Source: Escherichia coli
GTDB lineage: Bacteria > Pseudomonadota > Gammaproteobacteria > Enterobacterales > Enterobacteriaceae
Assembly: GCF_030013595.1 (NCBI RefSeq)
Contig: NZ_CP122768.1
Direction: 5' to 3' (one strand)
DNA length: 64,000 nt
The first letter of the stretch is position 1. Every line of letters begins with the position of its first letter. The notes beneath the pieces were generated by a model, which had not been told where the DNA came from, did no database searches, and was given only the letters and a program-made list of their open reading frames with translations. Shown piece after piece: positions 14,770 through 35,871 of this stretch. The position numbers and the translations under genes were made by a program.

Positions 14770-14791
14770 TAAGACAAAGGAGCAAATTTTT

Positions 14792-15844
14792 ATGAATCTG
14801 GTGATGTCAGATATTACCCGCAACAAGCTGGGTTGCTATATGGCGCAGCAGGCGTCGCTTAACAATATCCCGGTATCTGCACTGGTATCGCGATTTACCG
14901 TAGAACCCTCGGTGCAGCAGCGTTTTGAAAACGCAGTAAAGGAGAGCACTGAATTTACAAAAAAAATTAACGTGTTCGGTGTGACTGACCAGAAAGGCGA
15001 AAAAATCCTCCTTGACACCACCGGGCCGATTGCGCGCACGAATACCAGTTATGACGGCACAAAACGCCGTAACCCGAATAACGTGGTTGATCTGAAAAAC
15101 CGCAAATACCAGTGCGAACAGGTGAACTACGACACGTTTATTTCGTATCCGCAGCTTGATGCCTGGGCGGCACACCCTGATTTTCAGTCCCGCGTCAGCA
15201 CACAGATTGCCCGGCAGGTGGCGCTTGACCGCATCATGATCGGTTTCAACGGCACGTCTCACGCAGATGAGTCCAACTTCAGCACTAACAAGCTGCTTCA
15301 GGACGTTAACGTGGGATGGCTGGAGCACATCAGAACCGACGCCAGCGAGCGCGTTATGAATGATGTAACGCTGACCTCCCGCAACATGGACAACACCGTG
15401 GCGCACGCGGGTAAATATGCGAACGCTGATGCACTGGTACAGGACGCGCGCTCATCCCTGCTGGATGAATGGCACAAGGAAGCTGACGACCTCGTGGTGA
15501 TTATGGGGCGCAACCTGTTTAACTCGCTGCGTCTGCCCGTGCTGAACAGCATCAGCGGCCAGAATCCCAATGCGGAATTACTTGCCGGACAGCTCATCCT
15601 GTCATCGCGCGCCATTGGCGGGCTGGATGTATTCCTTGCGCCGTTCTTCCCGGATGCAACGATGCTGATCACCTCGTTCAACAACCTGTCAATTTACTGG
15701 CAGAAAGGAACAATGCGTCGCCTGATGAAAGACGAGCCGGAATACAACCGCATCGCCACCTACCAGTCCATCAATGACGCTTATGTCGTTGAAGACTATG
15801 GCAAGTGCGCGATGGTCACTGGCCTGAAGTTCGCCGACAGCTAA
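14792..15844 (+). CDS. N: Major capsid protein (P2 gpN)
   Basis: 350 aa; conserved blocks FTVEPSV, MIGFNG, LVVIMGR, NLSIYW as in P2 N. Confidence 0.9.
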   Translation: MNLVMSDITRNKLGCYMAQQASLNNIPVSALVSRFTVEPSVQQRFENAVKESTEFTKKINVFGVTDQKGEKILLDTTGPIARTNTSYDGTKRRNPNNVVDLKNRKYQCEQVNYDTFISYPQLDAWAAHPDFQSRVSTQIARQVALDRIMIGFNGTSHADESNFSTNKLLQDVNVGWLEHIRTDASERVMNDVTLTSRNMDNTVAHAGKYANADALVQDARSSLLDEWHKEADDLVVIMGRNLFNSLRLPVLNSISGQNPNAELLAGQLILSSRAIGGLDVFLAPFFPDATMLITSFNNLSIYWQKGTMRRLMKDEPEYNRIATYQSINDAYVVEDYGKCAMVTGLKFADS

Positions 15845-15889
15845 TCACCTCACGGCGGGCATCATGCCCGCCTGTAACGGAGAGAAAAA

Positions 15890-16690
15890 ATGATTACTCC
15901 TGCACAGCAACACTGGCAGAACGTGATGGCACAGCGCGCAGGCCGGGCGAATGAAGGCGTGGACCACGCCGCGCGTACCGCGCATGAAGAGGTGCTGTAT
16001 CGTCTGCGTCTGGCACAGGCCCGGCTTAAGGGCGTACAGGCCAGAAGCGCGAAAGCCGCCATCAAAAAAGAGTTATTGCCGGACTTTTCCGGCTGGATTG
16101 AGGGAACGCTGGAGGCTGACGGCGGGCAGCAGGATGAAGTGATTGCCACGCTGATGGTCTGGGCGATTGACTGCGGCGATCTTCCGCTGGCGCTGCGTAT
16201 TGGTGCATATGTGGTCCGTCACAACCTCATCATGCCGGATAACTTTGGACGTACTGCTGCCACGGTACTGACCGAAGAAATCTGTAATCCGGTACTGACG
16301 CAGGCCGGGACGGATGCCGACGCGGATTTGTCCGCCTTTATCGAACCACTGGACACCCTCCGGGAGATTGTCACCGACCAGGACATGCCGGACGAAGTGC
16401 GCGCCAAATTATGCAAAGCGTGCGCCTTTGCCCGCCGTGGCCTGAGTGATACGGACAGCATGGCCCTGTCACTGAAGCTGCTGCGCGAAGCAATGCACCT
16501 GAACCCGAACGCAGGTGTGAAACGCGAGATTGCAACCCTTTCCCGCGCCCTGAAAAAAGCCGATTCCGCAGCCGCACCAGAAGACGCCAGCGCACAGCAG
16601 ACGCAGGACGAAAGCAGCAAAAGTAAAAAGACAACGCGGAAGCCTGCAACACGAAAAACCACCGCGACGCAGAAGGCGAAGCGCGGTTAA
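15890..16690 (+). CDS. M: Terminase small/endonuclease subunit (P2 gpM)
   Basis: Conserved KKELLP, DMPDEVRAKL, AGVKREI blocks of P2 M. Confidence 0.85.
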   Translation: MITPAQQHWQNVMAQRAGRANEGVDHAARTAHEEVLYRLRLAQARLKGVQARSAKAAIKKELLPDFSGWIEGTLEADGGQQDEVIATLMVWAIDCGDLPLALRIGAYVVRHNLIMPDNFGRTAATVLTEEICNPVLTQAGTDADADLSAFIEPLDTLREIVTDQDMPDEVRAKLCKACAFARRGLSDTDSMALSLKLLREAMHLNPNAGVKREIATLSRALKKADSAAAPEDASAQQTQDESSKSKKTTRKPATRKTTATQKAKRG

Positions 16691-16783
16691 CGACTGACCC
16701 CGTCAGCGGGCGGCGTGCGCGGTGTTCCGGTTTGACTCCGTGACCGTTTACACCGCGCACCCACCGCCCGATTTTTTTCAGGA

Positions 16784-17287
16784 GTGAACCCCATGAGTAT
16801 GGTTGCCAGAACTGAACCCAGACCCGCAGAGGACGACATCACCGATACCGATGATGGCGATACCCGCATTTCAGCGGGTGCATTCTGGCCGGATATTGTG
16901 CTGCGCGAGCTGCGTCTGGCGGTACGACTGCCGGGCCGCGTGACCACCTCCCGCCTGCTACATACTGCCACCGGGGCTGTGGCACACGTTACCCGCGAGC
17001 TGGAAGCATGGCAGCAGGAACAGCAGGCAGCTGGCCATCAGACGCTGGCCGATGTTCCGGCACCCGTAATTAACGGAGAAAGCGTCAATCTCTGGCACTG
17101 GCGCAATGCTGTTTATACCGCCACGCGCGCCCTGATTCTGGAGCGTTACCGCGATGCGGACACAACGGATAAGGGCGACCGCCGGGCGGACGCACTGGAT
17201 ATACAGACATCGGATTTGTGGCGCGATGTGAGCTGGGCCATCTCTGACATTCTGCGCCGCCCGCGAATTTTTGCGGAGCTGTGCTGA
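16784..17287 (+). CDS. L: Capsid completion protein (P2 gpL)
   Basis: C-terminal LWRDVSWA...RRPRI matches P2 L. Confidence 0.85.
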   Translation: MNPMSMVARTEPRPAEDDITDTDDGDTRISAGAFWPDIVLRELRLAVRLPGRVTTSRLLHTATGAVAHVTRELEAWQQEQQAAGHQTLADVPAPVINGESVNLWHWRNAVYTATRALILERYRDADTTDKGDRRADALDIQTSDLWRDVSWAISDILRRPRIFAELC

Positions 17288-17487
17288 TGAAAGTGAAGGC
17301 ACTGGAAGGCGACACCGTGGATTCGCTCTGTTTCCGGTACTACGGCACGACGCAGGGCGTCACCGAAAAGGTGCTGGATGCCAACCCCGGACTCTGTCAG
17401 CAGGTATTTCTGGACGCCGGGCAGGACGTGGAGATGCCGGAGCCGGAGAAGAAGAAACGAGAAATGATTCAGTTGTGGGGGGAGTAG
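17287..17487 (+). CDS. X: Tail protein X (P2 gpX)
   Basis: MKVKALEGDTVDSLCFRYYGTTQGV...ANPGL parallels P2 X. Confidence 0.85.
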   Translation: MKVKALEGDTVDSLCFRYYGTTQGVTEKVLDANPGLCQQVFLDAGQDVEMPEPEKKKREMIQLWGE

Positions 17488-17489
17488 CA

Positions 17490-17813
17490 GTGAGCACCAT
17501 TCAAACAGGGATCACAGAGCAGGTTATTGCGTGGCTCTTTGACCACCTGCCAACGGTGTATGCAGTAGGCGCGGCGGTCAGCATTTCCGCGCTGATGAGT
17601 CTTTATGACGGACGAACACTGGTTCAGACCGTAACGGGATCGCTGGCGTGCGGCGTTCTTGCCATGGCCGTGGCCGGGTCGTTGCGCTTCTTCGGGTTTC
17701 CTGAAGATGCCGTGACGTTTATCGGCGCATCAATCGGTTTTATGGGCGCAGAGAAAGCACGCGACAAGGTTATTGCGGCCTTTAATCGCAGGGTGAAGGG
17801 GAAGGACGAATGA
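17490..17813 (+). CDS. Y: Holin (gpY position)
   Basis: GTG start with GGGGGAG ribosome-binding site; small protein with hydrophobic helices directly before the endolysin. Confidence 0.65.
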   Translation: MSTIQTGITEQVIAWLFDHLPTVYAVGAAVSISALMSLYDGRTLVQTVTGSLACGVLAMAVAGSLRFFGFPEDAVTFIGASIGFMGAEKARDKVIAAFNRRVKGKDE

Positions 17814-18202
17814 GCAACACATTTAAATTCAGCAGTCGGAGCGAAAAGAATTTGCAGGGCGTAAATCCTGATCTGGTGAAAGTGACCCGACGGGCACTGG
17901 AAATTTCGGAAGTGGATTTTGGTATCACCGAAGGGTTGCGCAGCCGTTACCGCCAGAAGCAACTTGTGGCCACAGGTAAGAGCCAGACCATGAACAGCCG
18001 CCACCTTACGGGACATGCCGTGGATGTTGTGGCTTATATCGGCAGCCAGGTGTCATGGGAATGGCCGCTGTACGAAAAAATCGCAGCAGCATTCAGACAG
18101 GCCAGCCGGGAGCTGAATATTCCGGTGGAATGGGGCGGCGACTGGAAGACCCTGAAAGACGGACCGCATTTTCAGTTACCACACGGAGCCTATCCGGCAT
18201 GA
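17810..18202 (+). CDS. Endolysin, peptidase M15 family (L-alanyl-D-glutamate peptidase-like)
   Basis: SRHLTGHAVDV...VEWGGDW motif arrangement typical of zinc D-Ala-D-Ala carboxypeptidase-like phage lysins; occupies the P2 K position. Confidence 0.7.
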   Translation: MSNTFKFSSRSEKNLQGVNPDLVKVTRRALEISEVDFGITEGLRSRYRQKQLVATGKSQTMNSRHLTGHAVDVVAYIGSQVSWEWPLYEKIAAAFRQASRELNIPVEWGGDWKTLKDGPHFQLPHGAYPA

Positions 18203-18606
18203 AGCTCTGGCCCACGCTGGGTGTCGCTTTCCTTCTGATTGCCGCATGGGGAACATCCATGCGTCTGTCATGGTCGCTGGGCCGGGAGAACGCCAGAAAC
18301 GAAGCGCAGGCCAGCACCCTGAAACGTACCGCCGACACCCTGAATATCATCAGCGCCGGGGTACAGGATATGCAGCAGGTGCTGGCGCAACTCCGCGTGG
18401 AAAATCAGCAACGCAATCAGGACGGAGAGGTAAGACGTGAACAGCTACGCAACGATATTGCAAAAGATGAATGCGCCCACGCTTTGCCTGACGCTCGTTT
18501 TACTGACAGGCTGCGCAGGCACGCAGAACGCGCCACTGCCAGCGCCGTCAGTCCGGCTTATACCGCAGACGCTGACCATACCGGTAACGCCGCCCCCCTT
18601 CCCTGA
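18199..18606 (+). CDS. i-spanin (LysB/Rz-like)
   Basis: N-terminal transmembrane segment followed by coiled-coil; overlaps the embedded lipoprotein gene. Confidence 0.6.
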   Translation: MKLWPTLGVAFLLIAAWGTSMRLSWSLGRENARNEAQASTLKRTADTLNIISAGVQDMQQVLAQLRVENQQRNQDGEVRREQLRNDIAKDECAHALPDARFTDRLRRHAERATASAVSPAYTADADHTGNAAPLP

Positions 18607-18757
18607 TACTCCCACATGGGGAAATCTCGGTATATGGGGCGACCGCCTTCTGGATGCACTGGAAACCTGTAACGCGGATAAACGGGCCATTGAATTACTG
18701 GAACAGCGCAGGCTGCAACGACTGAACAACGAGGACAACAACCATGCTGAAAACTGA
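18437..18757 (+). CDS. o-spanin lipoprotein (LysC/Rz1-like), embedded and overlapping
   Basis: Signal peptide with lipobox LLTGC; proline-rich mature part; starts inside the i-spanin gene in another frame. Confidence 0.6.
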   Translation: MNSYATILQKMNAPTLCLTLVLLTGCAGTQNAPLPAPSVRLIPQTLTIPVTPPPFPDTPTWGNLGIWGDRLLDALETCNADKRAIELLEQRRLQRLNNEDNNHAEN

Positions 18758-19211
18758 TTCCCTGCGTGAAGCCATGACCCGTTCATGCCGATGGTGTCAG
18801 GCCAACCCGGAAAAATTCACCATTTTCGTGGAGAGCGGCAACATTGAAACGACCGGAGAAACGCCCTCGTTTGTTTACCGCTATCAGATGGTGATGTTTG
18901 TCATGGATTACGCCGGGGAGCTGGACGACCTCACGCTGCCGCTGCTGGCGTGGTTATCCGAAAATCAGCCACAGTTGTTGCTCAACCCTGAGCGTAATCA
19001 GGACATCAAATTCTCCGCCGTTATCAATGACGATGACAGCGCCGATCTCCTGTTTACGCTCCCCCTGCGGGAACGCGTTCGCATCACGCGCAGCAGTCAG
19101 GGGACACCGCAGGCAGAACACCTGCCGGAGCCAAAACCCCGCCTGCCATCACCCGAAGGCGACTGGTCGCATGTATTCCAGGATGTGACGTGGGGTGAAA
19201 GCGATGGATAA
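18744..19211 (+). CDS. R: Tail completion protein (P2 gpR)
   Basis: 155 aa, same length and position as P2 R. Confidence 0.8.
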   Translation: MLKTDSLREAMTRSCRWCQANPEKFTIFVESGNIETTGETPSFVYRYQMVMFVMDYAGELDDLTLPLLAWLSENQPQLLLNPERNQDIKFSAVINDDDSADLLFTLPLRERVRITRSSQGTPQAEHLPEPKPRLPSPEGDWSHVFQDVTWGESDG

Positions 19212-19839
19212 GGCATTCACCCGCGTGGATGAAACCTTTGAGGCCATCCGCGACAGCCTGAATCAGCAGGCCATCAATAACATCGCCAGAAAGCTGGCAC
19301 AGGATTTACGCCGCGCCCAGCAGGCGCGTATCCGGTCACAGAAAGCGCCGGACGGGACCGCGTGGACACCACGCAGACGCCGCGTAACCCGGATACAGGA
19401 GCGCATTCGCTTTATCTGGAATAACGAAGCACGCACGCTGAAAAACTGGCATCACGACACGGGGAAATACGGGCGAACCATTACCGGGTGGGATGAGGAT
19501 AAAAACAATATCCGCACGTTTTACCGGGATGACATCGACCGTTTTCTGGAAATACGCACCCGGCGCATCAACCAGGACAGCACAAAGCGCGTCCCCATGT
19601 TCGTAAAACTGCGCACCGCCCGCTACCTGAAAGCCCGTGCAGATGCTTCCGGTGTGACGGTGGGTTACAGCGGCGTGGCCGCACGTATTGCCCGCGTTCA
19701 TCAGTTCGGTGAGCGCGATCAGGTTGCGCCGGGCATTTTCACCGATTACCCGGTACGTGAGCTGCTGGGTATCAGCCAGGCAGATGAGCGCCTGATTTAT
19801 AACACGGTGCTGGGCCGGATTGCGGAGGCTGTACGGTGA
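19195..19839 (+). CDS. S: Tail completion/virion morphogenesis protein (P2 gpS-like)
   Basis: Position between R and V; longer than P2 S. Confidence 0.7.
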   Translation: MKAMDKAFTRVDETFEAIRDSLNQQAINNIARKLAQDLRRAQQARIRSQKAPDGTAWTPRRRRVTRIQERIRFIWNNEARTLKNWHHDTGKYGRTITGWDEDKNNIRTFYRDDIDRFLEIRTRRINQDSTKRVPMFVKLRTARYLKARADASGVTVGYSGVAARIARVHQFGERDQVAPGIFTDYPVRELLGISQADERLIYNTVLGRIAEAVR

Positions 19840-20417
19840 GCGCAGAACTCATGCGACTGCTGAGCAATATCATCCGCACCGGGATCATCTCTGAAGTTGA
19901 TGAGAAGTCCTGGCGCGTGCGCGTTCGCAGCGGCGAACTGGAAACAGGCTGGTTGCGCTGGAACACCACGCGCGCGGGAGCCTTCAATGTATGGCTGCCG
20001 CCATCACCAGGCGAACAGGTGGTAATTGCCTGCATTGGCGGCAACCCGGAAACCGCCATGATAATTGGCAGCCTGTGGAGTGATGCCAGTCCGGCCCCCG
20101 GCAAAAGCCTGAAAGAAATCGTGGTCAGCGCGCCGGATGGCGCGGCGTTCCGCTACGACGCAGACGCTGGCGCACTGAGCGCCAGCGGCATGAAAACAGC
20201 CACCCTGCAGGCATCCGTCAGCGTGACACTGGATACGCCCGTCGTGGAATGCACAAACCTTCTGAGAACAGCGACGCTTGACGTCACAAAAGGGGGAAAG
20301 ATGAGCGGCAATATCACGCACAGCGGCGGCGATTTCACCTCAAACGGCATCACAGTGCATACGCATAAGCACGGTGGCGTTAAAGGTGGCAGCGATTCGA
20401 CAGGAGGCCCGCAGTGA
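19836..20417 (+). CDS. V: Baseplate spike/assembly protein (P2 gpV)
   Basis: 193 aa with the conserved GG/HTH..HGG C-terminus of gpV-type spikes. Confidence 0.85.
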   Translation: MSAELMRLLSNIIRTGIISEVDEKSWRVRVRSGELETGWLRWNTTRAGAFNVWLPPSPGEQVVIACIGGNPETAMIIGSLWSDASPAPGKSLKEIVVSAPDGAAFRYDADAGALSASGMKTATLQASVSVTLDTPVVECTNLLRTATLDVTKGGKMSGNITHSGGDFTSNGITVHTHKHGGVKGGSDSTGGPQ

Positions 20418-20764
20418 CAACCCGCTACACAGGAATGAACCCGGACGGAACGGGAAACCTGAACGATATGGAGCACCTGAAACAGTCAGTCAGGGACATC
20501 CTGACCACCCCGCTGGCCAGCCGGGTTATGCGACGGGAATATGGCAGCCTTGTGCCTGATTTGATTGACGAACCCATGAATAACACCACGCGTCTGCAAT
20601 GCATGAGTGCTGCCGTGATTGCGCTGACACGATGGGAACCCCGCATTGCCCTGGACGCTATCGACGTTGTCTGGAAGGCAGGAGGCCGCGCCGGGGTGAC
20701 GCTGTCGGGCACTGTCATGCAGACCATGCAGAATGTTGAATTAACCATCACGCTGAGGGAGTAA
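20414..20764 (+). CDS. W: Baseplate protein (P2 gpW)
   Basis: 116 aa, overlaps V stop; P2 W size and position. Confidence 0.85.
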   Translation: MTTRYTGMNPDGTGNLNDMEHLKQSVRDILTTPLASRVMRREYGSLVPDLIDEPMNNTTRLQCMSAAVIALTRWEPRIALDAIDVVWKAGGRAGVTLSGTVMQTMQNVELTITLRE

Positions 20765-20767
20765 ATC

Positions 20768-21664
20768 ATGCCTGCCGTTGACCTTTCACAGTTACCGGAC
20801 CCCGCCATCATCGCGGAGCCTGACTTTGAGGCAATTCTGGCTGACACAAAGGCCATGATGATTGCGTCCTATCCCGCCGAACAGCGTGAAGCCGTTTCCG
20901 CCGCGCTGGAGCTGGAATCGGAACCCCTTAACGTTATCGCTCAAACCATGTCGTTTCGTGAAATGCTGTTACGCCAGCGGGTCAATGAGGGTGCACGCGC
21001 CTGCATGCTAAGCCACAGCGCCGGGACAGACCTGGACAACCTCGCGGGCAATATGAACACAAAGCGCCTGGTTATCACTCCGGCAACGGATACCACCGAC
21101 GCAGTGATGGAAAGTGACACCTCGCTGAGACTACGGGCGCAACGGGCATATGACGGTCTGAGTGTTGCTGGCCCGTCAGGTGCATACGAGTATTTTGCAC
21201 GCAGCGCCAGCGGTCTGGTACGCGATGCGCGGGCCATCAGCCCGTCTCCGGCCAACGTGACGGTTTCCATCCTGTCCACTGAGGGCGACGGCACAGCAAC
21301 GGAGGCATTGCTTAATACCGTTCGCGCCGTTCTGAATGCAGAGGATACCCGCCCGGTGGCCGACCGCCTGACCGTACAGAGTGCCAGAATCGTGACATGG
21401 CGGCTGAATGCAAAACTGTACTTTTACCCCGGCCCGGAATCCGAACCTATTCTGGCCGCGGCGGAATCGTCGTTCAGGAAGTGGCTGTCTGAGCAGGGGC
21501 TTATCGGTCAGGATGTGGCGTTGTCAGCCATTGCTGCCGCACTGCATGTGCACGGTGTGCAACGCGTGGAGATAATCGAACCCACACAAAATATGGCCAT
21601 CAGCGACATACAGGCGGCGCGCTGTGAGTCATTCACCATCAGCGAAGGTGGGCGTAATGAGTAA
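20768..21664 (+). CDS. J: Baseplate assembly protein J (P2 gpJ)
   Basis: 298 aa, P2 J position. Confidence 0.85.
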   Translation: MPAVDLSQLPDPAIIAEPDFEAILADTKAMMIASYPAEQREAVSAALELESEPLNVIAQTMSFREMLLRQRVNEGARACMLSHSAGTDLDNLAGNMNTKRLVITPATDTTDAVMESDTSLRLRAQRAYDGLSVAGPSGAYEYFARSASGLVRDARAISPSPANVTVSILSTEGDGTATEALLNTVRAVLNAEDTRPVADRLTVQSARIVTWRLNAKLYFYPGPESEPILAAAESSFRKWLSEQGLIGQDVALSAIAAALHVHGVQRVEIIEPTQNMAISDIQAARCESFTISEGGRNE

Positions 21665-22187
21665 TTCACTGTTACCGCCATCAGCCAGCAATTTCATGCG
21701 TTGTGCCGAAGCTGTCGGAACGCGCATTACAGACATTCCGGTAGACCTCAACACGCTGTGGTCGCCGGACACCTGCCCGGTGCATCTGCTGCCTTATCTC
21801 GCCTGGGCATTTTCCGTTGACCGCTGGGATCGCAACTGGCCGGAAGAGACAAAGCGACAGGTGATTCGTGATGCATGGCTGATACACCGACACAAAGGGA
21901 CCATCAGCGCACTGCGCCGGGCCATTGAGCCGCTGGGATACCTCATTCGTGTGTCTGAGTGGTGGGAGTTCGGCGGAGAACCGGGAACATTTACCGTTGA
22001 AGTCGGCACGCTGGACAGTGGCGTGACGGAGGAAATGTATCTGGAAATGGAGCGGTTGATTGCTGATGCCCGCCCGGTCAGCCGCCACATGACAGGGCTG
22101 AATATCATTCAGGAGATCCCGGGGGATATTTTCGCGGCGGCAGCAACTTACGACGGTGAAGTCATTACCATTTATCCGGACGATTAA
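21657..22187 (+). CDS. I: Baseplate/tail protein I (P2 gpI)
   Basis: Starts 8 nt inside J; 176 aa as in P2 I. Confidence 0.85.
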   Translation: MSNSLLPPSASNFMRCAEAVGTRITDIPVDLNTLWSPDTCPVHLLPYLAWAFSVDRWDRNWPEETKRQVIRDAWLIHRHKGTISALRRAIEPLGYLIRVSEWWEFGGEPGTFTVEVGTLDSGVTEEMYLEMERLIADARPVSRHMTGLNIIQEIPGDIFAAAATYDGEVITIYPDD

Positions 22188-22189
22188 GC

Positions 22190-24781
22190 ATGAGTACCAC
22201 AACACGAAAATTTAAAACCATTATCACTGATACTGGTGCCAAAAAATTAGCTCAGGCAGCCGCGCCAGATGGTAATCCTGTCCGCCTGACTCACATGGCC
22301 GTGGGCGACGGTGGCGGCACGTTGCCCACACCAGACAGTAAGCAGACCCGTCTGGTGCATGAGGTGTGGCGACATACTGTTAATCGCGTCATCCTGGACG
22401 CAACACATCAGAACCGCATTATTGCGGAGCTGGTTATTCCTCCTGAAACGGGCGGATTCTGGATCCGGGAAATTGGTGTATTTGATGAGCACGGCGATTT
22501 GATCGCGGTGGGCAATACTGCGGAAAGTTACAAGCCAGCCGTTGCCGAAGGATCCGGACGTGTACAAACATTTCGCACCATTCTGACCGTATCCAGCACT
22601 GCCACCGTGGCGCTTACCGTGGATAACACCATGGTTATGGCCACAGTGGATTACGTGAATGACAAACTGAAAGAACATGAACAGTCACGACGTCACCCGG
22701 ACGCCTCGCTGACCGCAAAAGGCTTTGTTCAACTCAGTAGCGCCACCAACAGCACGTCTGAAACACTGGCCGCAACGCCGAAAGCGGTAAAGGCCGCGTA
22801 TGACCTTGCTAACGGGAAATATACCGCACAGGACGCCACCATAGCGCGAAAAGGCCTTGTCCAGCTCAGTAGTGCCACCAACAGCACGTCTGAAACGCTC
22901 GCCGCAACGCCGAAAGCGGTAAAGGCAGCATATGACCTTGCTAACGGGAAATACACTGCACAGGACGCCACCACAACGCGAAAAGGCCTTGTTCAGCTCA
23001 GTAGCGCCACCAACAGTGATTCTGAAACGCTTGCGGCAACGCCAAAGGCGGTAAAGGCAGCATATGACCTTGCTAACGGGAAATACACTGCACAGGACGC
23101 CACCACAGCGCGAAAAGGTCTTGTCCAGCTCAGTAGCGCCACCAACAGCACGTCTGAAGCATTGGCCGCAACACCGAAAGCGGTAAAGGCCGCGTATGAC
23201 CTTGCTAACGGGAAATACACTGCACAGGACGCCACCACAGCGCGAAAAGGTCTTGTCCAGCTCAGTAGCGTCACCAACAGCGATTCTGAAACGCTTGCGG
23301 CAACGCCAAAGGCGGTAAAGGCCGCGTATAACCTTGCTAACGGGAAATACACTGCACAGGATGCCACTACAGCGCGAAAAGGTCTTGTCCAGCTCAGTAG
23401 CGTCACCAACAGTGATTCTGAAACGCTGGCCGCAACATCAAAAGCGGTGAAGTCTGCCTATGACAATGCTGAAAAACGCCTTCAGAAAGATCAGAACGGT
23501 GCGGATATTCCGGGAAAGGATACCTTCACGAAAAATATCGGTGCCTGTCGTGCTTATAGCGGCGCTTTGAGCACTGAAGCCGGAAACTGGACAACCGCTC
23601 AGTTTATTGAATGGCTGGATTCCCGTGGTGCATTTAATCATCCGTACTGGATGTGCAAAGGCTCATGGTCATATGCAAATAACAAAATCATTACGGATAC
23701 CGGATGTGGTGATATCCACCTGGCTGGTTGTGTCGTCGAGGTCATGGGAACTAAATCTGCAATCACTATCCGAGTAACCACGCCGACAACATCAAGTGGT
23801 GGCGGTACAACCAGCGCACAATTCACTTACATTAATCATGGGGGCGGCTACTTCCCCGGCTGGCGTCGTGACTGGAATCGTCAGGGCGACTCAATGACCG
23901 GAACGATTAATCAGGATGGCGGAAGCCAGAATGCCTATATGTCTACGGCCTTATGTTCAGGCACCAGAGGCGGCAAAAAATATCTCAGAAAGTTTCGTGG
24001 TGGAGAAGGAGATACTATCTGGCATGAAACAGTACAGGGCGGGGTAATTCGCTGGGCGACAGGAAACTATGACGCTCAGGAAGAATTATCACTCAGCTCC
24101 GCTTATGGTCTCCGTTCAAGAGGTGAGATTACATCACTCAGTGCTAATGGTCTGCGCATTGCTTATGGCAATTATGGATTCTTTATCAGGAATGATGGCG
24201 GCAGCACATATTTAATGCTGACGGCCTCTGGCGATAAATTTGGGACATGGAACGGCTTAAGACCGCTGACTATCAATAACGCCAATGGCGGAGTGTCAAT
24301 GGGGCATGGCCTGAGTGTTACAGGTGATATTGTCTCAAGTACCAAAGTACGTGCCGGTAGCGGGAAAAAGTTCACGGTCAGCAGCAGCAATACATCCACG
24401 AAGGAAGCCGCATTCAATTTGTGGGGAAACGCAAGTCGTCCGGTGGTGGCTGAATTAGGTGATGATGCAGGCTGGCATTTTTACAGTCAGAGAAATACAG
24501 ATAACAGCATCACTTTTGCTGTTAACGGGCAGGTATCACCATCTAACTATGGCAACTTTGATTCACGCTATGTCCGGGATATTAGACTTGGTGGCGCGTC
24601 ATCCTATAAACCAGCAAATAACGGGACAACATGGACGCATCAGGCTCCATCTGGTTGCGCATATACCGGGATTATCGTTCAGGATACAGGCTCAAACTCT
24701 GCCGATAATATTGGTGGTGTTTATTACAGACCAATTCAAAAAAATATTAATGGTACATGGTATAACGTATCGAGTGTTTGA
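22190..24781 (+). CDS. H: Tail fiber protein (P2 gpH-like) with expanded internal repeats
   Basis: Conserved gpH N-terminus, then about 5.5 tandem 44-aa repeats and a distal receptor-binding region. Confidence 0.85.
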   Translation: MSTTTRKFKTIITDTGAKKLAQAAAPDGNPVRLTHMAVGDGGGTLPTPDSKQTRLVHEVWRHTVNRVILDATHQNRIIAELVIPPETGGFWIREIGVFDEHGDLIAVGNTAESYKPAVAEGSGRVQTFRTILTVSSTATVALTVDNTMVMATVDYVNDKLKEHEQSRRHPDASLTAKGFVQLSSATNSTSETLAATPKAVKAAYDLANGKYTAQDATIARKGLVQLSSATNSTSETLAATPKAVKAAYDLANGKYTAQDATTTRKGLVQLSSATNSDSETLAATPKAVKAAYDLANGKYTAQDATTARKGLVQLSSATNSTSEALAATPKAVKAAYDLANGKYTAQDATTARKGLVQLSSVTNSDSETLAATPKAVKAAYNLANGKYTAQDATTARKGLVQLSSVTNSDSETLAATSKAVKSAYDNAEKRLQKDQNGADIPGKDTFTKNIGACRAYSGALSTEAGNWTTAQFIEWLDSRGAFNHPYWMCKGSWSYANNKIITDTGCGDIHLAGCVVEVMGTKSAITIRVTTPTTSSGGGTTSAQFTYINHGGGYFPGWRRDWNRQGDSMTGTINQDGGSQNAYMSTALCSGTRGGKKYLRKFRGGEGDTIWHETVQGGVIRWATGNYDAQEELSLSSAYGLRSRGEITSLSANGLRIAYGNYGFFIRNDGGSTYLMLTASGDKFGTWNGLRPLTINNANGGVSMGHGLSVTGDIVSSTKVRAGSGKKFTVSSSNTSTKEAAFNLWGNASRPVVAELGDDAGWHFYSQRNTDNSITFAVNGQVSPSNYGNFDSRYVRDIRLGGASSYKPANNGTTWTHQAPSGCAYTGIIVQDTGSNSADNIGGVYYRPIQKNINGTWYNVSSV
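22715..23460 (+). repeat. Tandem in-frame 132-bp repeats (about 5.5 copies) inside the tail fiber gene
   Basis: Unit encodes RKGLVQLSSATNSxSETLAATPKAVKAAYDLANGKYTAQDATTA; copies near-identical at DNA level. Confidence 0.85.
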
Positions 24782-25317
24782 TTATGATGCATTTAAAAAA
24801 TATAAAACCGGGCAATCCAAAAACAAAAGAACAGTACCTGTTAACTAAAAACTCCGGCGTTGTCTGGTTATTCGCTGAAGATGGTAAAAACTGGTATGAG
24901 GAACAAAAGAACTTTCAGCCAGACACCATAAAGATTGCATATGATGAAAATAATGTCATATGCGACGTGCAAACGGATGTAACTGCAATTTGCCCGGAAG
25001 GAAAAAGTGTTGTCGAGTTGCCTAATATTACAGCAAACCGACGCGCTGATATTTCAGGTAACTGGATGTTTAAAGATGGCTCAGTCATTAAACGTGTGTA
25101 TACCGAAGAAGAGCAACGCTTGCAGGCTGAAAACCAGAAACAAAGGTTATTACAGCAGGCCAGAGAAAAAACGCAGTTCTGGCAGACCCAGCTTGCATTA
25201 GGGATTATCAGTGATTCAGATAAGCAACAACTGATGCGCTGGATGCGGTACGTGCAACAAGTTGAGACCACTGATACCACTGAATTACCCGTTACGTTCC
25301 CTGATCAACCAGAATAA
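24778..25317 (+). CDS. G: Tail fiber assembly chaperone (P2 gpG-like)
   Basis: Immediately downstream of H with overlap; typical tfa size. Confidence 0.8.
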   Translation: MIMMHLKNIKPGNPKTKEQYLLTKNSGVVWLFAEDGKNWYEEQKNFQPDTIKIAYDENNVICDVQTDVTAICPEGKSVVELPNITANRRADISGNWMFKDGSVIKRVYTEEEQRLQAENQKQRLLQQAREKTQFWQTQLALGIISDSDKQQLMRWMRYVQQVETTDTTELPVTFPDQPE

Positions 25318-25350
25318 ACGAAAGGCCCGAATATCGGGCCTTATCGTTAT
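25318..25350. terminator. Bidirectional rho-independent terminator between convergent G and U
   Basis: Hairpin AAAGGCCCGA-tat-CGGGCCTT flanked by T/A runs. Confidence 0.6.
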
Positions 25351-25385
25351 TTCTGTTTATCTAACTATTTGTGATTTGCGTTAAA

Positions 25386-25880
25386 TCAGAACAGTCCCTT
25401 AACAGAACTGACCGCACTGTTAAGGGATGACGCCACCTTATCTTTGAAGCCGGACAGCATATCGCTGAACGATGAGGATTGCAGGCGCTCCCGCAAATCC
25501 TCATCACAGCGTTCAAGGGTCAGTGAAAATTCTATCTTTTTCGCCTTACCGTAGCGATCAAACTCGGAACGGGTCGTATTCGTTTCAGTCAGCACATACA
25601 TGCCGTAAATCTGCCCGACACCATCAATCAGAGGCCAGGGGCGTCCTGTATATGCCTGCGTGGTCAGCAACGAAAGCGACACTTCGCCACCTGTAATTTC
25701 AGGATAAAGCACGCCGGAAAGCACAATGCGATCATCACCTGCACCTATATACTGCCAGCTTGCTGAACGGTTAACGCGTTCATTTTTTACATGCCGCCAG
25801 CTTTTGTTTTGCTGTAACTGCTGATGCGGCAGTGTGCGCAGCTCAAAAACAAACATGCCGTAGATCATCATCATGGCCAT
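25386..25880 (-). CDS. U: Tail protein U (P2 gpU)
   Basis: MMIYGMFVF...QQLQ...SW N-terminus resembles P2 U. Confidence 0.85.
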   Translation of the reverse strand: MAMMMIYGMFVFELRTLPHQQLQQNKSWRHVKNERVNRSASWQYIGAGDDRIVLSGVLYPEITGGEVSLSLLTTQAYTGRPWPLIDGVGQIYGMYVLTETNTTRSEFDRYGKAKKIEFSLTLERCDEDLRERLQSSSFSDMLSGFKDKVASSLNSAVSSVKGLF

Positions 25881-25886
25881 GACTCC

Positions 25887-28703
25887 TCAATCTTTATCGT
25901 AAAAACTGCCACGTCCGGCACGGGCGCGCCGTTCCATCTCTGCCCTGACCATTTCACCGACCAGTTTCGCCAGTTCGCGGGGATTCTGCGTAACAACGTT
26001 ATGCAGATGAACATGAATTTCACCGCCAAACCCGGAGGCAACAGGCTCCCGGTTACGGAAAGTTGCAGGAACTGATGCCACTGGAGAGCGTATGGCCTCC
26101 GCCACCGGGCGGGAGCTGGCCGCAACAACAGGGACCAGCGCCGGAGGCAGCGGAGCCGGGACCACGGGTGTGATATTAATTGCGGGGGCAGGCTTACTGA
26201 CCTGCGCAATCTTCCGCTCCTGCCACTCCCCACGAACAGCAAGTGCGCGGGGCAGGTTCTTAAAGACAATATCGCCGGGGCCAATGCGTTTTTTCGTCTC
26301 ATCAACCAGCTTACCTGTGTTATCAGCAATTTTGCTGAGTCTGCGTAGCGTACCGGTATTGCTGTCTGTGAGCGGTTTGTTGTCTTTGGGCTTATCACCT
26401 CCGGTGCCATTGCCATTTTCCACAGGCTTCGGCGGATTGATTTTCGCCAGGTCCCCCTGAAGCAAGGCAACCTTGTCCTGAAGAATGGCCGCACGCTGTG
26501 CGTCTTCGATTTTCTTGCGCGCCCTTTCCGCTTCATCCGGAAGCACACCGAGCTTTTCAAGTATCCACGCCAGCGTATCCAGCAACATTTTTGCAGGTGT
26601 CAGAACAAGTTGTAACGCACCGCCAAGAACGTTACCGAATATCTCGCCAGCACTGGTACATTTATCCAGCGTTTCCTTGCTGGACTCCATCGGTGACAGC
26701 AGCGATTTAAACCAGTTAAACACCTGGCTGATCCCGCTTCCGATTGCGTCAAAAACAGGACCAAACCGTTCAAAGGTTTCGCGCAACGGGGTCAGCCTTT
26801 CCATAATCCCGCTGAACACTCCGGCAAAAAATGCCCTGATGGGATCCCAGTATTTCCAGATAAGAACGGCAGCTCCGGCAAGCGCAGCCACAATAAGACC
26901 AACCGGACTGAACAACGCCCCGATAGCGCCTCCCAGTAAAGAAACAGAACCCGTCACCATTCCCCACAGCGCAGGCAACACCCTGACGACATTCATTGAC
27001 CGGGTCAGGATGTCAAAACCAAGACGCAGGGTGGCCAGCTTCCCGTAAAGCACCCCAATAACCAGCGACAACGAGCCAATCGTTGCAGTCATTGCCAGCA
27101 ACGCACCGCCTGCTATCAGTAGCTGGCGCGTCAGTACCGGATGGGCCTGCGCCAGCGAGGTGATTTTTTCAAGCACCCGCGTGAACCACTGCGTGACAAA
27201 ACGCAGCGGACCGTCAACCAGATCACTGATGCGAATACGAAGACCTTCCCATGCGCTGTCGAGATTTTTCAGGTCCCCATCAAGATTATCGGCCATTACT
27301 TTTGCAACGCGATCGGCCTCTCCCCTTGCCCCCTGCAATTCTCTGGTCAGTTTTTGCAGCTCTCCTGAACCAGCCGCCGCAACAAGCGTCTGCAAACCAA
27401 CGAACGCCTCTTCTCCGGCGATGTCCTTGAAGAAGGAGACCTGGTCCACCTGTCCGTATTTTTGTGTCGCCTTATAGAGATCAAGCAGCACATCCTCCAT
27501 CGGGCGCATTTTGCCTCTGGCGTCAGCAACTGACACCCCAAGCTCTTTCAGCGCATCAGCCGCAGCTTTTGGCGGTGATGCAAGGCGGGACAGACTTGCG
27601 CGCATGGCCGTACCAGCATCGCTTCCACGAAGACCATTATTGGCAAGCATCCCGGCCATGGCTGCCGCTTCTTCAAGACTGATACCAAGTTTTGCGGCAA
27701 CCGGACCGGTATACTTCATGGTTTCGCCCAGCGCGCGTAAATCAGTATTGGTCCGGGTGAATGCCGCTGTCAGCGTATCGCCAACCCGGTCCATTTGATC
27801 GGCTGTCAGGTTGAACTGTGTGAGGATATTGGAGCCTATATCAGCCGTCTCGCCGAGTTCGACGCCACCTGCCAGCGCCATATTAAGAACACCGGGCAAT
27901 GCGGCCTGAATGGCCTGCGGAGTAAAACCAGCCATTGCCAGAAAGCTCTGCCCACTGGCGGCATCACTCGCAGTAAACTGTGTTTCAGAGCCAAGTTTTA
28001 ACGCCTGCTCACGCAGCGCCTTAAACTGCGGGCTGTTTTTGTCGATTCGCGTCAGTGCCTGAACGCGGGACATCTCTTTGCCGAACCCGATCGCAGGCTG
28101 CAAAAAACGCCCGGCAGCATAGCCGCCCGCCGCTGCCGCACCAATTGCCAGCGCACCACCTGTTTTCAGTTTTCCCGCTGTTTCCTGCGCGCGCGAATAC
28201 CGCTCACGCGCCCGCGTTACACGCGCAAGCGCCTGCCGTTCGCGTTCAAGCTGGTTGTTGTACTGTTCGGTGCGTCTGATGGCCTGCTGGATGGTGTTAT
28301 CGCTGCCTGTCAGGGAAATGCCGTGGCGTTTCAGCTCTCCGCCAAGCTCCCGCATTTTCTGAATTTCCCGTGTGCGCGATTCATTCAGGCGTTCAAGCCG
28401 GGTGCTTAACTGCTGCATCAGCTTTTGTTGTTTTTCGCTGAGCACTGTACCCGTGCGTTGTAACTGATTAAGGGCGTTAAGCTGGCGTCGTGCTTTCAAT
28501 ATGCCAGCATCCGCTTTACTGACAGCGTCACGGGCGCGCTCAAATGAACGCGCCTGACGCTCGAGATTTTTGATCGCCCCCTGCGTTCGCTGGATGGAGT
28601 CACCAAGCTGCCCCATCAGGCGGCGGGCGTTTTCGGCAGGCCGGGTCAACCTGTCAACGGCGCTGAAAGCGACCCGGATATCAAGAGTCTTCATTATCTG
28701 CAT
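25887..28703 (-). CDS. T: Tail tape measure protein (P2 gpT)
   Basis: 938-aa protein, helical with a central hydrophobic glycine-rich segment; between E and U. Confidence 0.85.
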   Translation of the reverse strand: MQIMKTLDIRVAFSAVDRLTRPAENARRLMGQLGDSIQRTQGAIKNLERQARSFERARDAVSKADAGILKARRQLNALNQLQRTGTVLSEKQQKLMQQLSTRLERLNESRTREIQKMRELGGELKRHGISLTGSDNTIQQAIRRTEQYNNQLERERQALARVTRARERYSRAQETAGKLKTGGALAIGAAAAGGYAAGRFLQPAIGFGKEMSRVQALTRIDKNSPQFKALREQALKLGSETQFTASDAASGQSFLAMAGFTPQAIQAALPGVLNMALAGGVELGETADIGSNILTQFNLTADQMDRVGDTLTAAFTRTNTDLRALGETMKYTGPVAAKLGISLEEAAAMAGMLANNGLRGSDAGTAMRASLSRLASPPKAAADALKELGVSVADARGKMRPMEDVLLDLYKATQKYGQVDQVSFFKDIAGEEAFVGLQTLVAAAGSGELQKLTRELQGARGEADRVAKVMADNLDGDLKNLDSAWEGLRIRISDLVDGPLRFVTQWFTRVLEKITSLAQAHPVLTRQLLIAGGALLAMTATIGSLSLVIGVLYGKLATLRLGFDILTRSMNVVRVLPALWGMVTGSVSLLGGAIGALFSPVGLIVAALAGAAVLIWKYWDPIRAFFAGVFSGIMERLTPLRETFERFGPVFDAIGSGISQVFNWFKSLLSPMESSKETLDKCTSAGEIFGNVLGGALQLVLTPAKMLLDTLAWILEKLGVLPDEAERARKKIEDAQRAAILQDKVALLQGDLAKINPPKPVENGNGTGGDKPKDNKPLTDSNTGTLRRLSKIADNTGKLVDETKKRIGPGDIVFKNLPRALAVRGEWQERKIAQVSKPAPAINITPVVPAPLPPALVPVVAASSRPVAEAIRSPVASVPATFRNREPVASGFGGEIHVHLHNVVTQNPRELAKLVGEMVRAEMERRARAGRGSFYDKD

Positions 28704-29219
28704 TCCCGCTGCGAAGTGCCGCCCGCTCGCGCCAGCTAACCACTTCGCCGGGCGTCATCATGAAGATTTCGGCGGGCGACCAGTTAAAAATGGCGGCAAT
28801 ATCCGCCACCAGATCTTCGATGTGCTCAAAGCACACCAGGGTGATTACGCTGCCGTCTCCTGCACGCTCTTCGCGCCAGAGTCTGGCTCGCTCATAAAAT
28901 TTACAGCCACAGCGCACAACTGAATAAAATCGCGTGACGACATTTTTTTAATCATCACTTCATCCAGTCGTGGCGAGGTCACGCGAGGCAACAGCGTGAA
29001 CATGGTATCCGCTTTCAGATTCAGCACATCAGACAGCGACAGACCACGCAGGGATCCAGCCTGCTCAATAGCCCCGGTGATCTCCACATACGTGATTTTT
29101 TCGCCACCACGCTCAATTGGTCGGGTCAGTTTTACGCCACGTTCGACAGCCATATCCTCACCTGCCGTCACATCATCCGCCACGGTGTTATTCCGGGTTT
29201 CAGTATCGATGTCTTTCAT
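28681..29219 (-). CDS. E+E': E+E' fusion produced by programmed -1 frameshift
   Basis: A7 tract (plus-strand T7 at about 28943-28949); the -1 frame continues into the 28681-28917 ORF, as in P2 E/E' and lambda G/GT. Confidence 0.65.
28845..29219 (-). CDS. E: Tail assembly chaperone E (zero-frame product)
   Basis: ORF upstream of T containing an A7 slippery run; exact start uncertain. Confidence 0.7.
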   Translation of the reverse strand: MKDIDTETRNNTVADDVTAGEDMAVERGVKLTRPIERGGEKITYVEITGAIEQAGSLRGLSLSDVLNLKADTMFTLLPRVTSPRLDEVMIKKMSSRDFIQLCAVAVNFMSEPDSGAKSVQETAA

Positions 29220-29274
29220 CAGTTGTCTCCTTTTCAGTCAGAGGCGACGCACTGCGCCGCCTGCATATTATTTA

Positions 29275-29787
29275 TCAGCCAAGCCCAAGCGCGGAACGGA
29301 TACGGTCAGGCACAATGTCCTTGCCGTCCTTCCGGTAGATGTGGTTCAACAGGTCGATTTCCCACAGCGGGCGATCGTTAACGCTCAGCTTGTAGTAGGT
29401 GTTTTTGACAGCGTAAGTGTGTGATGTGGCTTCGCCCTGTTTGGCTTCCCCCATATCAATTTCCGTCACACGCCCGCGCATCTCGATTTCATACAGATCA
29501 CTTTCTGCATCGGTGTAGTATTCACCCGCAAAACGCAGCAGCGTGCCGTCAATCGTGCCGCCATATTTAAGGAACAGCGCACGAACAGCTCCCCCCATAA
29601 CAAAACTCGCATCAAGCGCGGAGTCGTCCAGACCGAGATCAATACTTACCGCCCCCATCATGCCACCACCACGATAGCTGTCGGTTTTGCGCGTCAGTTT
29701 GGGCGGCGTGACGGATGTCACTTTACCCACTTCGTTTTCACCATCCACAAACAACGTAAAAAAGCGAAGATGTTTTGGTACAGCCAT
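29275..29787 (-). CDS. FII: Tail tube protein (P2 gpFII)
   Basis: 170 aa, directly downstream of the sheath gene. Confidence 0.85.
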   Translation of the reverse strand: MAVPKHLRFFTLFVDGENEVGKVTSVTPPKLTRKTDSYRGGGMMGAVSIDLGLDDSALDASFVMGGAVRALFLKYGGTIDGTLLRFAGEYYTDAESDLYEIEMRGRVTEIDMGEAKQGEATSHTYAVKNTYYKLSVNDRPLWEIDLLNHIYRKDGKDIVPDRIRSALGLG

Positions 29788-30971
29788 CAGACACCTCCCA
29801 GCACCGCAAATGCGGGACCAAAGAATTCATCAGTAAACGTCTGGTAAAGCTCCATGTCTTCCAGTGGCGGAACGGGCGTATATTTGTAGCGAATACGCAC
29901 ACGTCCCTGACGTAAATCCGTGGTGCCGTTATCCACCACGTCATACCAGCACTCCGCACCAATCAGTTTCCCGGCAGTAACCAGCGAATCCAGTTTTGCT
30001 CTGATGGCACTGATAACATCCTTCACGTTCGCAGGCGTCAGTGGACTGTCGATGGTTTCAAACTGCGCTTCCGCAATTGAATCAGCCAGCACCTGTGCGG
30101 TTCGGGTATACACCTCAAAGATGTAGGCGTTCGTTTCCGGTGTGCGGTTGCCCCAGAAGCGGAACCCGTTGCGACGAATAATGGTCGTGATTTCTTTGTT
30201 GTTGAGGCTGTTGGCATCACTGTCTTCAGCCTGCAACGACCAGAACACATGCCTCGACATCCCCAGCACATTTTTAACCGGAACGTTGGACAGCGATTTG
30301 TGCCAGCCCTGCTCATGGTCAATGTACGCACGAAGGCCGCACGCATAGGCAGGCGCGGGGAACGTTTCGTTTTCGCCACTTTTCGGGTTGTAGGCGATGA
30401 AGTCCGGCCACAAGAGCATCACCTCACGTTCGTTGAATTTCTGGCGGTAGGTAATCGCTTCAGCCATCGTGTTACAGCCGTGACATGCGGCATACACAAA
30501 CGCGCGCAGTTTACCCGCAATCACGCACAGGGATTTTGTCACCGCCTCCGTGTCCAGCTCCGGCGCGGCCAGAATACGCGGACGGTATCCGATGCTTTCA
30601 TCCTGCTCTGCAACAAGCAGCGCATACATCCCCGTATAGCTGCCGTCATCCTCAGAACCACCGATAACCAGTTGATCCTGCGTCTTACCGTCTTCTTCTT
30701 TGTGTTCAGCCACGCGAACGACGATCACCTTTGTGCTCACCTGGTCTGCGATGGCCTTAAGCGCACGATAAAGCGTCCCCGTTGTTCCGCATTTTCCCAG
30801 CACGTCATTGACGCGGGTCAGCAGTGTGGGCTTGTTCAGCGGGAACAGCTTCGCGTCCGCATCATCCGCCGTTGCCACGATACCGATAACGCTGGAATCA
30901 ACATCGTTAATCGCTGTTACCAGGTCGGTATTTTCCGTAACACGGGCACCATGAAAACGAGTTTCACTCAT
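29787..30971 (-). CDS. FI: Tail sheath protein (P2 gpFI)
   Basis: 394 aa with conserved sheath blocks (GFRFWGNRT, YTRTAQV, YKYTPVPPLE). Confidence 0.9.
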   Translation of the reverse strand: MSETRFHGARVTENTDLVTAINDVDSSVIGIVATADDADAKLFPLNKPTLLTRVNDVLGKCGTTGTLYRALKAIADQVSTKVIVVRVAEHKEEDGKTQDQLVIGGSEDDGSYTGMYALLVAEQDESIGYRPRILAAPELDTEAVTKSLCVIAGKLRAFVYAACHGCNTMAEAITYRQKFNEREVMLLWPDFIAYNPKSGENETFPAPAYACGLRAYIDHEQGWHKSLSNVPVKNVLGMSRHVFWSLQAEDSDANSLNNKEITTIIRRNGFRFWGNRTPETNAYIFEVYTRTAQVLADSIAEAQFETIDSPLTPANVKDVISAIRAKLDSLVTAGKLIGAECWYDVVDNGTTDLRQGRVRIRYKYTPVPPLEDMELYQTFTDEFFGPAFAVLGGV

Positions 30972-31128
30972 AGCTTCAGCCCCTTGTATCCGTTAAATGA
31001 TTCGGCAACAATCATCACCCACCACGCGCGTAATCTCACCCCTGCGCCGTTCTCCCGACCCAGCGACAACAAAAAGCAGTAACCCCCTCCGCACGCACAT
31101 GCGACCATGCCGCACAGGGAGGGAACAG

Positions 31129-32232
31129 ATGACCGACACCACCATGCAATTGCTCAGTCAGGGCACAGACCCCGTGAAAATGCCGGATTTTGATATTCTT
31201 GCGGAGGGTAAAACGCTGTCAGGCGTGGCAGAGCGCCTGATGAGCCTGTCACTGACCGACAACCGGGGATTTGAGGCGGACCAGCTCACCATCACGCTGG
31301 ATGATGCGGATGGTCAGTTGCAGCTACCGCCACGGGGCGCGCGCCTGACGGTTCTCATTGGCTGGAAAGGAGAACCGCTGACAGAAAAAGGCACTTACAT
31401 TGTTGATGAAATCGCTCACGAAGGACCGCCGGACAGGCTGACAGTTTCAGCCAGAAGCGCAGATTTTCGGGATGAATTTAACGTTAAACGTGAGGTGTCC
31501 TGGCATGATGTGACCGTTGAGCGTGTGGTATCCGCCATCGCTCATCGGTATGGTCTGAAATCGCAAATCAGCGAAATGCTGATGGATATTGAAATCGACC
31601 ACGCCGACCAGACCGAAGAAAGCGACATGTCCTTCCTTACGCGCATGGCGGAAATGCTGGGCGCAATCACTACGGTAAAAAGCGGTAATCTGTTATTCAT
31701 TATGCCAGGCGGTGGCGTGAACGCGCAGGGCCAGCCGTTGCCCTCGTTCGCCATCACACGCAGCAGCGGCGATCGCCATCAGTTCCGCATTGCTGACCGA
31801 GAGGCGTATACGGGGGTACGCGCTTACTGGCTTGATCTTAATTACGGGAAAAAGAAAAAAGTCAGCGTGAAACGCCGTAAACCGCCAAAACCCAAAAAGG
31901 AGAAAAGCAGCAGCCGTGAAGGTGATTATATGGAAGGCGCGGAAGGCAATGTGTTTGTGTTACGCAAGACTTATCAGAACGAGCAGGCAGCAAGACGCGC
32001 AGCGGCGGCAAAGTGGCAGCAGCTACAACGCGGAGCCGCAGCGTTCTCCATCACATTGGCACGTGGACGCGCAGAACTCTACCCCGAAATGCATGGCACG
32101 GTAACAGGCTTTAAAAGCGAGATTGATAATCAGGACTGGATTATTGCGAAAGCCGAGCACACCATTGATAACAGCGGCTTTACCACGCAGCTTGAGCTTG
32201 AGGCAAAAATCCCGGAATGGATAGCAGAATGA
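31129..32232 (+). CDS. D: Tail protein D (P2 gpD, late control gene D family)
   Basis: Start at MTDTTMQLL with AGGGAGGG ribosome-binding site; size and position as P2 D. Confidence 0.8.
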   Translation: MTDTTMQLLSQGTDPVKMPDFDILAEGKTLSGVAERLMSLSLTDNRGFEADQLTITLDDADGQLQLPPRGARLTVLIGWKGEPLTEKGTYIVDEIAHEGPPDRLTVSARSADFRDEFNVKREVSWHDVTVERVVSAIAHRYGLKSQISEMLMDIEIDHADQTEESDMSFLTRMAEMLGAITTVKSGNLLFIMPGGGVNAQGQPLPSFAITRSSGDRHQFRIADREAYTGVRAYWLDLNYGKKKKVSVKRRKPPKPKKEKSSSREGDYMEGAEGNVFVLRKTYQNEQAARRAAAAKWQQLQRGAAAFSITLARGRAELYPEMHGTVTGFKSEIDNQDWIIAKAEHTIDNSGFTTQLELEAKIPEWIAE

Positions 32233-35836: not shown

Positions 35837-35871
35837 TTTAAAGCGGATTTTTCCTATGGCAACAATAATAT

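Follow-up and report, generated by a model that had tools for sequence, protein, structure and literature searches.

The 132-bp tandem repeats in the tail fibre gene of an Escherichia coli prophage most likely make up the repeat part of a trimeric fibre shaft, whose number of units has been changed by in-register recombination or slippage (we put the probability of this reading at roughly 0.85). The window, i.e. the whole stretch of 64,000 nucleotides from contig NZ_CP122768.1 that was analysed, contains this gene with six units. The gene, its parts and the gene downstream of it are as follows.

22190-24781, + strand: tail fibre gene of the P2 gpH type, 863 aa, which holds the array (PF12571, six PF03406 and PF21446)
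22205-22648, + strand: N-terminal tail-collar fibre domain, aa 6-153, with presumed baseplate attachment (PF12571, Phage_tail_fib, E = 7e-54)
22715-22846, + strand: repeat unit 1 (AKGF... variant), closest to unit 1 of P2 H (119/132)
22847-22978, + strand: repeat unit 2, 128/132 identical to P2 unit 2
22979-23110, + strand: repeat unit 3, 129/132 identical to P2 unit 3
23111-23242, + strand: repeat unit 4, absent from the 4-unit P2 allele; nearest is unit 2 (92.4%); triplicated in the 8-unit allele L010
23243-23374, + strand: repeat unit 5, absent from the 4-unit P2 allele; nearest is unit 3 (93.2%)
23375-23470, + strand: repeat unit 6, a 32-aa core, 125/132 identical to the last P2 H unit; aligns to Mu gpS 116-159
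23462-23923, + strand: Mu S'-like middle domain, aa 425-578 (PDB 8ju3 residues 177-332, 233.6 bits)
24110-24775, + strand: distal domain similar to the Mu S C-terminus, aa 641-862 (PDB 5yvq residues 266-503, 149 bits)
24784-25317, + strand: tail fibre assembly (chaperone) gene (PF02413, Caudo_TAP, E = 2.5e-33; RefSeq annotation of a collinear prophage)

Tandem Repeats Finder (TRF) was run over positions 20000-27000 of the window and found a single array (22717-23464, period 132, 5.7 copies, 89% matches, 0% indels, score 1125). The array is in frame with the ORF at 22190-24781 and spans 22715-23470 in codon register. Each unit of 132 bp corresponds to 44 codons, a multiple of 3, and the unit starts listed above fall at residues 176, 220, 264, 308, 352 and 396. 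Units 1-5 are complete with 44 aa each, while unit 6 retains only the first ~32 residues, after which its core leads into a different sequence, a Mu S-like linker (AEKRLQKDQNGADIPGKD...). An in-frame tandem array of 132-bp units had been proposed in the first-pass annotation, and TRF, the ORF and Pfam agree on it, with five full units and a truncated sixth. The 44-aa consensus, RKGLVQLSSATNSTSETLAATPKAVKAAYDLANGKYTAQDATTA, was also given correctly there, as were the T/D, A/V and D/N substitutions; to these we add T/A in unit 4 as well as I/T and A/T at the ends of units. The description of the units as near-identical holds for the protein, with pairwise identities of 86-95% among units 1-5, but less so for the DNA (84-93%). 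Any two units can be told from each other by 9-21 differences in the 132 positions, and the longest exact runs common to units are 76, 60, 45 and 44 nt. A search in all frames gave no further repeat copies elsewhere in the window.

In the Pfam analysis, PF03406 (Phage_fiber_2) matched the protein in six stretches with 372.6 bits against a cut-off of 22, covering profile positions 1-41/42. The score is above the gathering cut-off and the host protein is a tail fibre located between the I and Caudo_TAP genes, so that both the profile and the setting place the array in this family. PF21446 (Gp34_trimer) matches at aa 631-695, and the distal domain at aa 641-862 is presumed to be the receptor-binding and chaperone-binding end. 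The identification of the gene as a tail fibre gene was supported by its Phage_tail_fib N-terminus, the six PF03406 stretches and the Mu S/S'-like distal half, with baseplate genes J and I and the assembly gene on its flanks. The Phage_tail_fib N-terminus and the order V-W-J-I-H-G mark it as a P2 gpH-type fibre. A 99.8% identical gene is annotated as 'tail fiber protein' in RefSeq.

The neighbouring genes carry Pfam matches to Baseplate_J, Tail_P2_I, Caudo_TAP (the assembly gene) and gpU. A prophage of E. coli ETEC1749, a P2-family phage according to RefSeq, matches the window at 97% identity over 21.7 kb. The genes W-J-I-H-tfa are followed by U-T-E-tube-sheath on the opposite strand, and this order is the same in P88, the ETEC1749 prophage and the window. 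Such an opposite-strand block is unusual in a P2-type phage and is the normal layout in P88 (Xuanwuvirus). Judged by gene order, the prophage can be assigned as P88-like (Xuanwuvirus, Peduoviridae). Between the assembly gene, which ends at 25317, and gpU (25386-25880, - strand), there is a gap of 68 nt with no invertase and no alternative fibre segment; the invertible fibre-end segment with invertase that P88 carries may not be a defining feature of Xuanwuvirus. An Rfam scan of the whole window gave no matches, and the one tRNA called by ARAGORN lies inside gpV and is probably false.

The main evidence for a change in the number of units comes from related alleles. Full-length matches were found in 133 complete genomes, with gene spans of 2592, 2460, 2328, 2196 and 2064 nt, i.e. 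steps of exactly 132 nt. One example was fetched for each of the four shorter sizes, and these were found to have 5, 4, 3 and 2 units respectively, all in the synteny W-J-I-fibre-assembly-U-T and with flanks 97-100% identical to the window. In the 3-unit allele, units 1 and 2 are identical to those of the window and the last unit consists of the head of unit 3 and the tail of unit 6; this hybrid is the signature of an in-register deletion of 396 bp. On the side of gain, a 951-aa member of the 90%-identity cluster of the window protein has 8 units (allele L010, on a draft contig). Each of its units is 132/132 identical to some unit of the window and unit 4 is present three times; the allele was either expanded very recently or misassembled. 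Arrays of 4 units are found in 58 of the 120 closest protein clusters, arrays of 5 in 56 and arrays of 6 in 7. The array is thus a coding VNTR, with a unit that is a multiple of 3 and with 2, 3, 4, 5, 6 or 8 units between flanks that are 97-100% identical. The first-pass annotation had expected the copy number to be unstable through recombination and had named the comparison of related prophages as a check. The syntenic alleles with 2-6 units in complete genomes, the 8 units in the draft and the unit-3/unit-6 hybrid at the deletion junction support that expectation. Our literature search found no study on copy-number variation of the Phage_fiber_2 repeat.

We account for these observations as follows. 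Six PF03406 modules stand between the presumed baseplate-attachment domain and the Mu S/S'-like, presumably receptor-binding half. When units that are not equivalent pair in register, homologous recombination or slippage during replication would add or remove whole modules. Whole modules can be gained or lost without a break of the frame because every unit has a length of exactly 132 bp and different units have stretches of as much as 76 nt in common without a mismatch. Such gain and loss would have produced the natural series of alleles with 2 to 8 units, and the conserved unit sequence would double as a homology patch joining fibre modules of different phages. The anatomy, the purifying selection on the units, the polymorphism in copy number and the recombinant junctions are demonstrated here; it is plausible, as the first-pass annotation suggested, that each unit adds a fixed increment to the length or reach of the fibre, which would be relevant for adsorption. 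Three observations stand against this explanation or limit it. The DNA divergence of 7-16% between units should slow recombination; an identical 6-unit allele recurs stably in many strains, which speaks against very high instability; and the 8-unit allele was taken from a draft assembly and could be an assembly error.

Structural information on the unit is sparse. A profile search of PDB found the repeat only in Mu gpS, with a single unit, and the Mu virion study modelled no part of the fibre beyond its N-terminus (PMC11915804). The Pf2 domain is presumed to be a globular bead from electron microscopy of a collagen-like fibre protein of an E. coli prophage, and its function is little known (PMC3368898), while Phage_fiber_2 is listed among the repeat families that were modelled and had no known structure (PMC8078820). 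We ran AlphaFold2 on the single sequence of aa 151-457, and the result (mean pLDDT 49.4, pTM 0.32) is too poor to give the fold or the length of a unit. As the fibre is an obligate trimer, any monomer model of it would be unreliable.

The closest known systems were compared with the window gene. P2 H (Peduovirus P2, NC_070905.1, 736 aa) shares the N-terminal fibre domain, the tandem 44-aa PF03406 units and the location downstream of baseplate genes J and I and upstream of the assembly gene. It has 4 units rather than 6, units 4 and 5 of the window being extra, and its distal end is different, with the DNA similarity gone past gene position ~1684 except for a short 3' stretch. P88 gp39 (Xuanwuvirus, NC_026014.1) comes from a phage with the same opposite-strand block of sheath, tube, tape measure and U; its first 869 nt are 92% identical in DNA and its repeat also starts at residue 176. 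It differs in having 3 units and another distal half, and P88 has an invertase with an alternative fibre end and the assembly gene of that end, a set that is missing from the window prophage. Mu S/S' (PDB 5yvq, 9ki1, 8ju3) resembles the window protein in the distal half, which matches S' 177-332 and S 266-503, and the PF03406 unit of Mu S (residues 116-159) aligns to unit 6 of the window. Mu S has one unit and no array, and its N-terminus is different; the fibre end of Mu is switched by inversion of the G segment (PMC11915804).

Two P1-like S fibres (P0122 and P0123), which are beside P1 R, gp16 and a Cin-type resolvase, have tandem PF03406 units of nearly the same sequence (KGIVQLSSDTNSTSETLAATPKAVKAAYDLA). 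They differ from the window protein in having 7 and 11 units, in which 44-aa and 62-aa units alternate, in having another N-terminus and in having a collar-type distal end under invertase control. K-12 StfR, considered as a further fibre with many PF03406 stretches, was dropped from the comparison; the Pfam scan and TRF found none in it. The adenovirus fibre is a trimeric attachment fibre with a shaft made of a variable number of short repeats, and the number of repeats sets its length and influences receptor usage. It belongs to a eukaryotic virus and its fold and sequence are unrelated, and so it serves as a functional analogy only.

We then consider how unusual an array of six units is. A profile of the unit was searched against 1.84 billion representative proteins (E <= 0.001) and matched 4042 proteins. 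Among the best 150 of the 4042, 29 have at least 6 stretches and the maximum is 22. Near-identical units number 11 and 7 in the two P1-type S fibres, and YpM46, a Yersinia phage, has 4 units. Six units is therefore in the upper range and not exceptional. The array is expanded relative to P2, but not recently, as its units are old and diverged rather than fresh duplicates. The orthologous units of P2 H are 119-129/132 identical to units 1, 2, 3 and 6 of the window, closer than the units of the window are among themselves, and therefore the array is older than the P2 and window alleles. Compared as a 264-bp block, units 4-5 are 92.8% identical to units 2-3, the top value of the block comparisons, which suggests that units 4-5 come from either an old duplication of two units or an out-of-register exchange between diverged alleles. 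The term 'expanded' in the first-pass annotation is thus appropriate only in relation to the 4 units of P2; the same lineage reaches 8 units, P1-like fibres have 7-11, and the expansion was not recent. Purifying selection acts on the units in the sense frame: between units, dS is 0.25-0.53 and dN/dS is 0.08-0.22, and of the 29 variable columns, 18 are at codon position 3, 22 are transitions, mostly synonymous, and 12 involve A.

Another possible reading, which we hold only tentatively, is that the array is mainly a recombination adapter, that is, a conserved cassette in P2-, P88-, P1-, Mu- and lambdoid-type fibres for swapping receptor-binding ends. Out-of-register exchanges would then change the copy number as a neutral side effect; this reading is compatible with the explanation given above. 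Of 5426 complete E. coli genomes, 1633 contain the repeat DNA, at a median of 3 places each and at 16 in the highest case. The similarity to other fibres starts or stops at the edges of the array: many matches in phages and E. coli end between gene positions 1131 and 1284 or begin between 463 and 529, and the edges of the array are 526-1275. The window gene itself is P88-like upstream and YpM46/P2-like downstream with a switch within the array, since the similarity to P88 gp39 (positions 1-869) decays within it and the similarity to YpM46 (95%) starts inside it and runs to gene position 2402. Also, units 4-5 differ from units 2-3 by ~7%, a level typical between alleles. A simple hybrid of a P88 N-terminus with 2 units and YpM46 with 4 units is not clearly supported; units 2 and 3 of YpM46 are nearer to units 2 and 3 of the window than to 4 and 5. 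On the other hand, the dN/dS of 0.08-0.22 holds for every unit, so the protein sequence matters and not DNA homology alone, and the order of the orthologous units is conserved between P2 and the window allele. We take the array as a probable shaft element which also serves as a common homology patch for the exchange of fibre modules between phages. Mosaicism of tail fibres is reportedly a long-standing view (it is said to go back to work of Haggard-Ljungquist and colleagues in 1992 and of Sandmeier in 1994), and the mosaic joints in the array fit it.

It is unlikely that the number of units is a selected 'reach' setting, in which the length of the fibre is matched to the thickness of the host O-antigen or capsule and the 2-8 series is adaptive and not neutral. 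If it were true, the copy number would predict the type of host surface.

That the six units are an artefact of assembly, by collapse or expansion of the true array, is very improbable. Many 'partial' database proteins begin or end within the array, and therefore draft assemblies break there; the 8-unit allele, in which unit 4 occurs three times without a difference, also comes from a draft genome. For the window, however, the gene span of exactly 2592 nt recurs in 11 complete E. coli genomes from unrelated sources (pig, human, cattle and deer isolates), 8 of which match at >=99.4% identity. NCBI contains an identical protein of 863 aa, found on 9 contigs, one of them of 5.58 Mb. As the span and the exact protein both recur and the units of every pair can be distinguished by their 9-21 differences, an artefact is unlikely and the six-unit count can be trusted here. 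The earlier warning about short reads is borne out in part, for draft assemblies, where the array is a spot at which they break or may miscount, but it does not apply to the count in this gene.

Programmed variation, either as the target of a diversity-generating retroelement, as an invertase-switched segment or as a high-frequency contingency locus, has slightly less chance still. Close relatives do differ in copy number, and beside this gene P88 carries an alternative fibre end as well as a DNA invertase, but the 68 nt between the assembly gene and gpU in the window leave neither of these. The mostly synonymous transitions, with only 12 of the 29 variable columns involving adenine, do not show the adenine-specific pattern of a retroelement, and units of 132 bp that have diverged are unlike the short-unit repeats of contingency loci.

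Two ORFs run antisense to the array.

22729-22974, - strand: antisense ORF of 81 aa, a by-product of the repeat, with its stop from the GTT codon of unit 1; not annotated in RefSeq
22993-23409, - strand: antisense ORF of 138 aa, a by-product of the repeat, with its stop from the same GTT/CAG triplet in unit 3; not annotated in RefSeq

Their lengths of 81 and 138 codons are the only point in favour of real genes overlapping the fibre gene, which is the least credible reading of all. In the frame of both ORFs, the third positions coincide with the third positions of the sense frame. Units 1 and 3 encode a Val with the synonymous codon GTT, and the sense triplet T/CA that results gives the antisense stops at 22729-22731 and 22993-22995; units 2, 4, 5 and 6 use GTC, and there the antisense frame stays open. 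The boundaries of the ORFs thus depend on the choice between GTT and GTC in the sense frame, the variation among units fits selection on that frame, and the products merely mirror the repeat. The first-pass annotation had called these ORFs spurious; both exist, and they should stay out of the annotation.

The first-pass annotation described the array correctly and was mostly right in its interpretation. The feature is ordinary and already catalogued, with a curated Pfam entry for the repeat and the exact protein public as a tail fibre protein, and its significance is small beyond annotation hygiene. The series of 2-8 units in one prophage lineage would be a handy test set for relating shaft length to adsorption, or for building fibres whose length increases in steps.

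In the P88-like prophage, the genes for the head, baseplate and fibre (13900-25317) lie on the plus strand, while those for the sheath, tube, E, tape measure and U (25386-30971) lie on the minus strand. P2 has no such opposite-strand split between its sheath-to-U genes and its head, baseplate and fibre genes; in phage P88 (Xuanwuvirus), on the other hand, the opposite-strand sheath-to-U block is the normal layout, as in the window prophage. The two nevertheless differ in that the DNA invertase of P88, as well as its segment with an alternative fibre end and assembly gene, is missing from the window prophage. The following gene, which lies close to the window's left end, probably marks the left boundary of the prophage:

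1811-2938, minus strand: phage integrase with Int_N and Phage_integrase domains

ARAGORN also called a tRNA-Leu(CAG) at 20123-20212 on the minus strand, within the gpV baseplate ORF (19836-20417, plus strand). This call is probably a false positive, because Rfam at the gathering threshold found no RNA in the entire window.

A longer allele of the fibre gene, with 8 units, occurs at positions 3001-5856 of a draft contig (JNNA01000084.1 of GCA_000700165.1). It carries three copies of unit 4 at 132/132 identity, and its remaining units are all identical to those of the window. Either two units were gained very recently in this allele, or the draft assembly is in error here.

A 3.8-kb cargo insert at 32233-36005 separates gpD (30997-32232) from the ogr-like region. 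This insert is absent from the ETEC1749 prophage, although that prophage is elsewhere collinear with ours. The insert codes for a His-Xaa-Ser radical SAM cassette with these genes:

32397-33110, minus strand: HxsA
33029-34141, minus strand: HxsC
34134-35522, minus strand: HxsB

In relatives, hxsD is annotated. PADLOC gave only weak, viperin-like hits on the insert, and 88 of the 5426 complete E. coli genomes match it at 80% coverage or higher.

Past the P88-like prophage, from about 36700 to 64000, the match to the ETEC1749 locus is lost. This part of the window holds a second phage-like region, which includes:

38267-38833, minus strand: GH108 endolysin
41096-42181, minus strand: N6/N4 DNA methyltransferase
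55110-57581, plus strand: protein of 823 aa that carries an Rv2179c-like exonuclease domain

The P88-like prophage and this second region may be tandem prophages.
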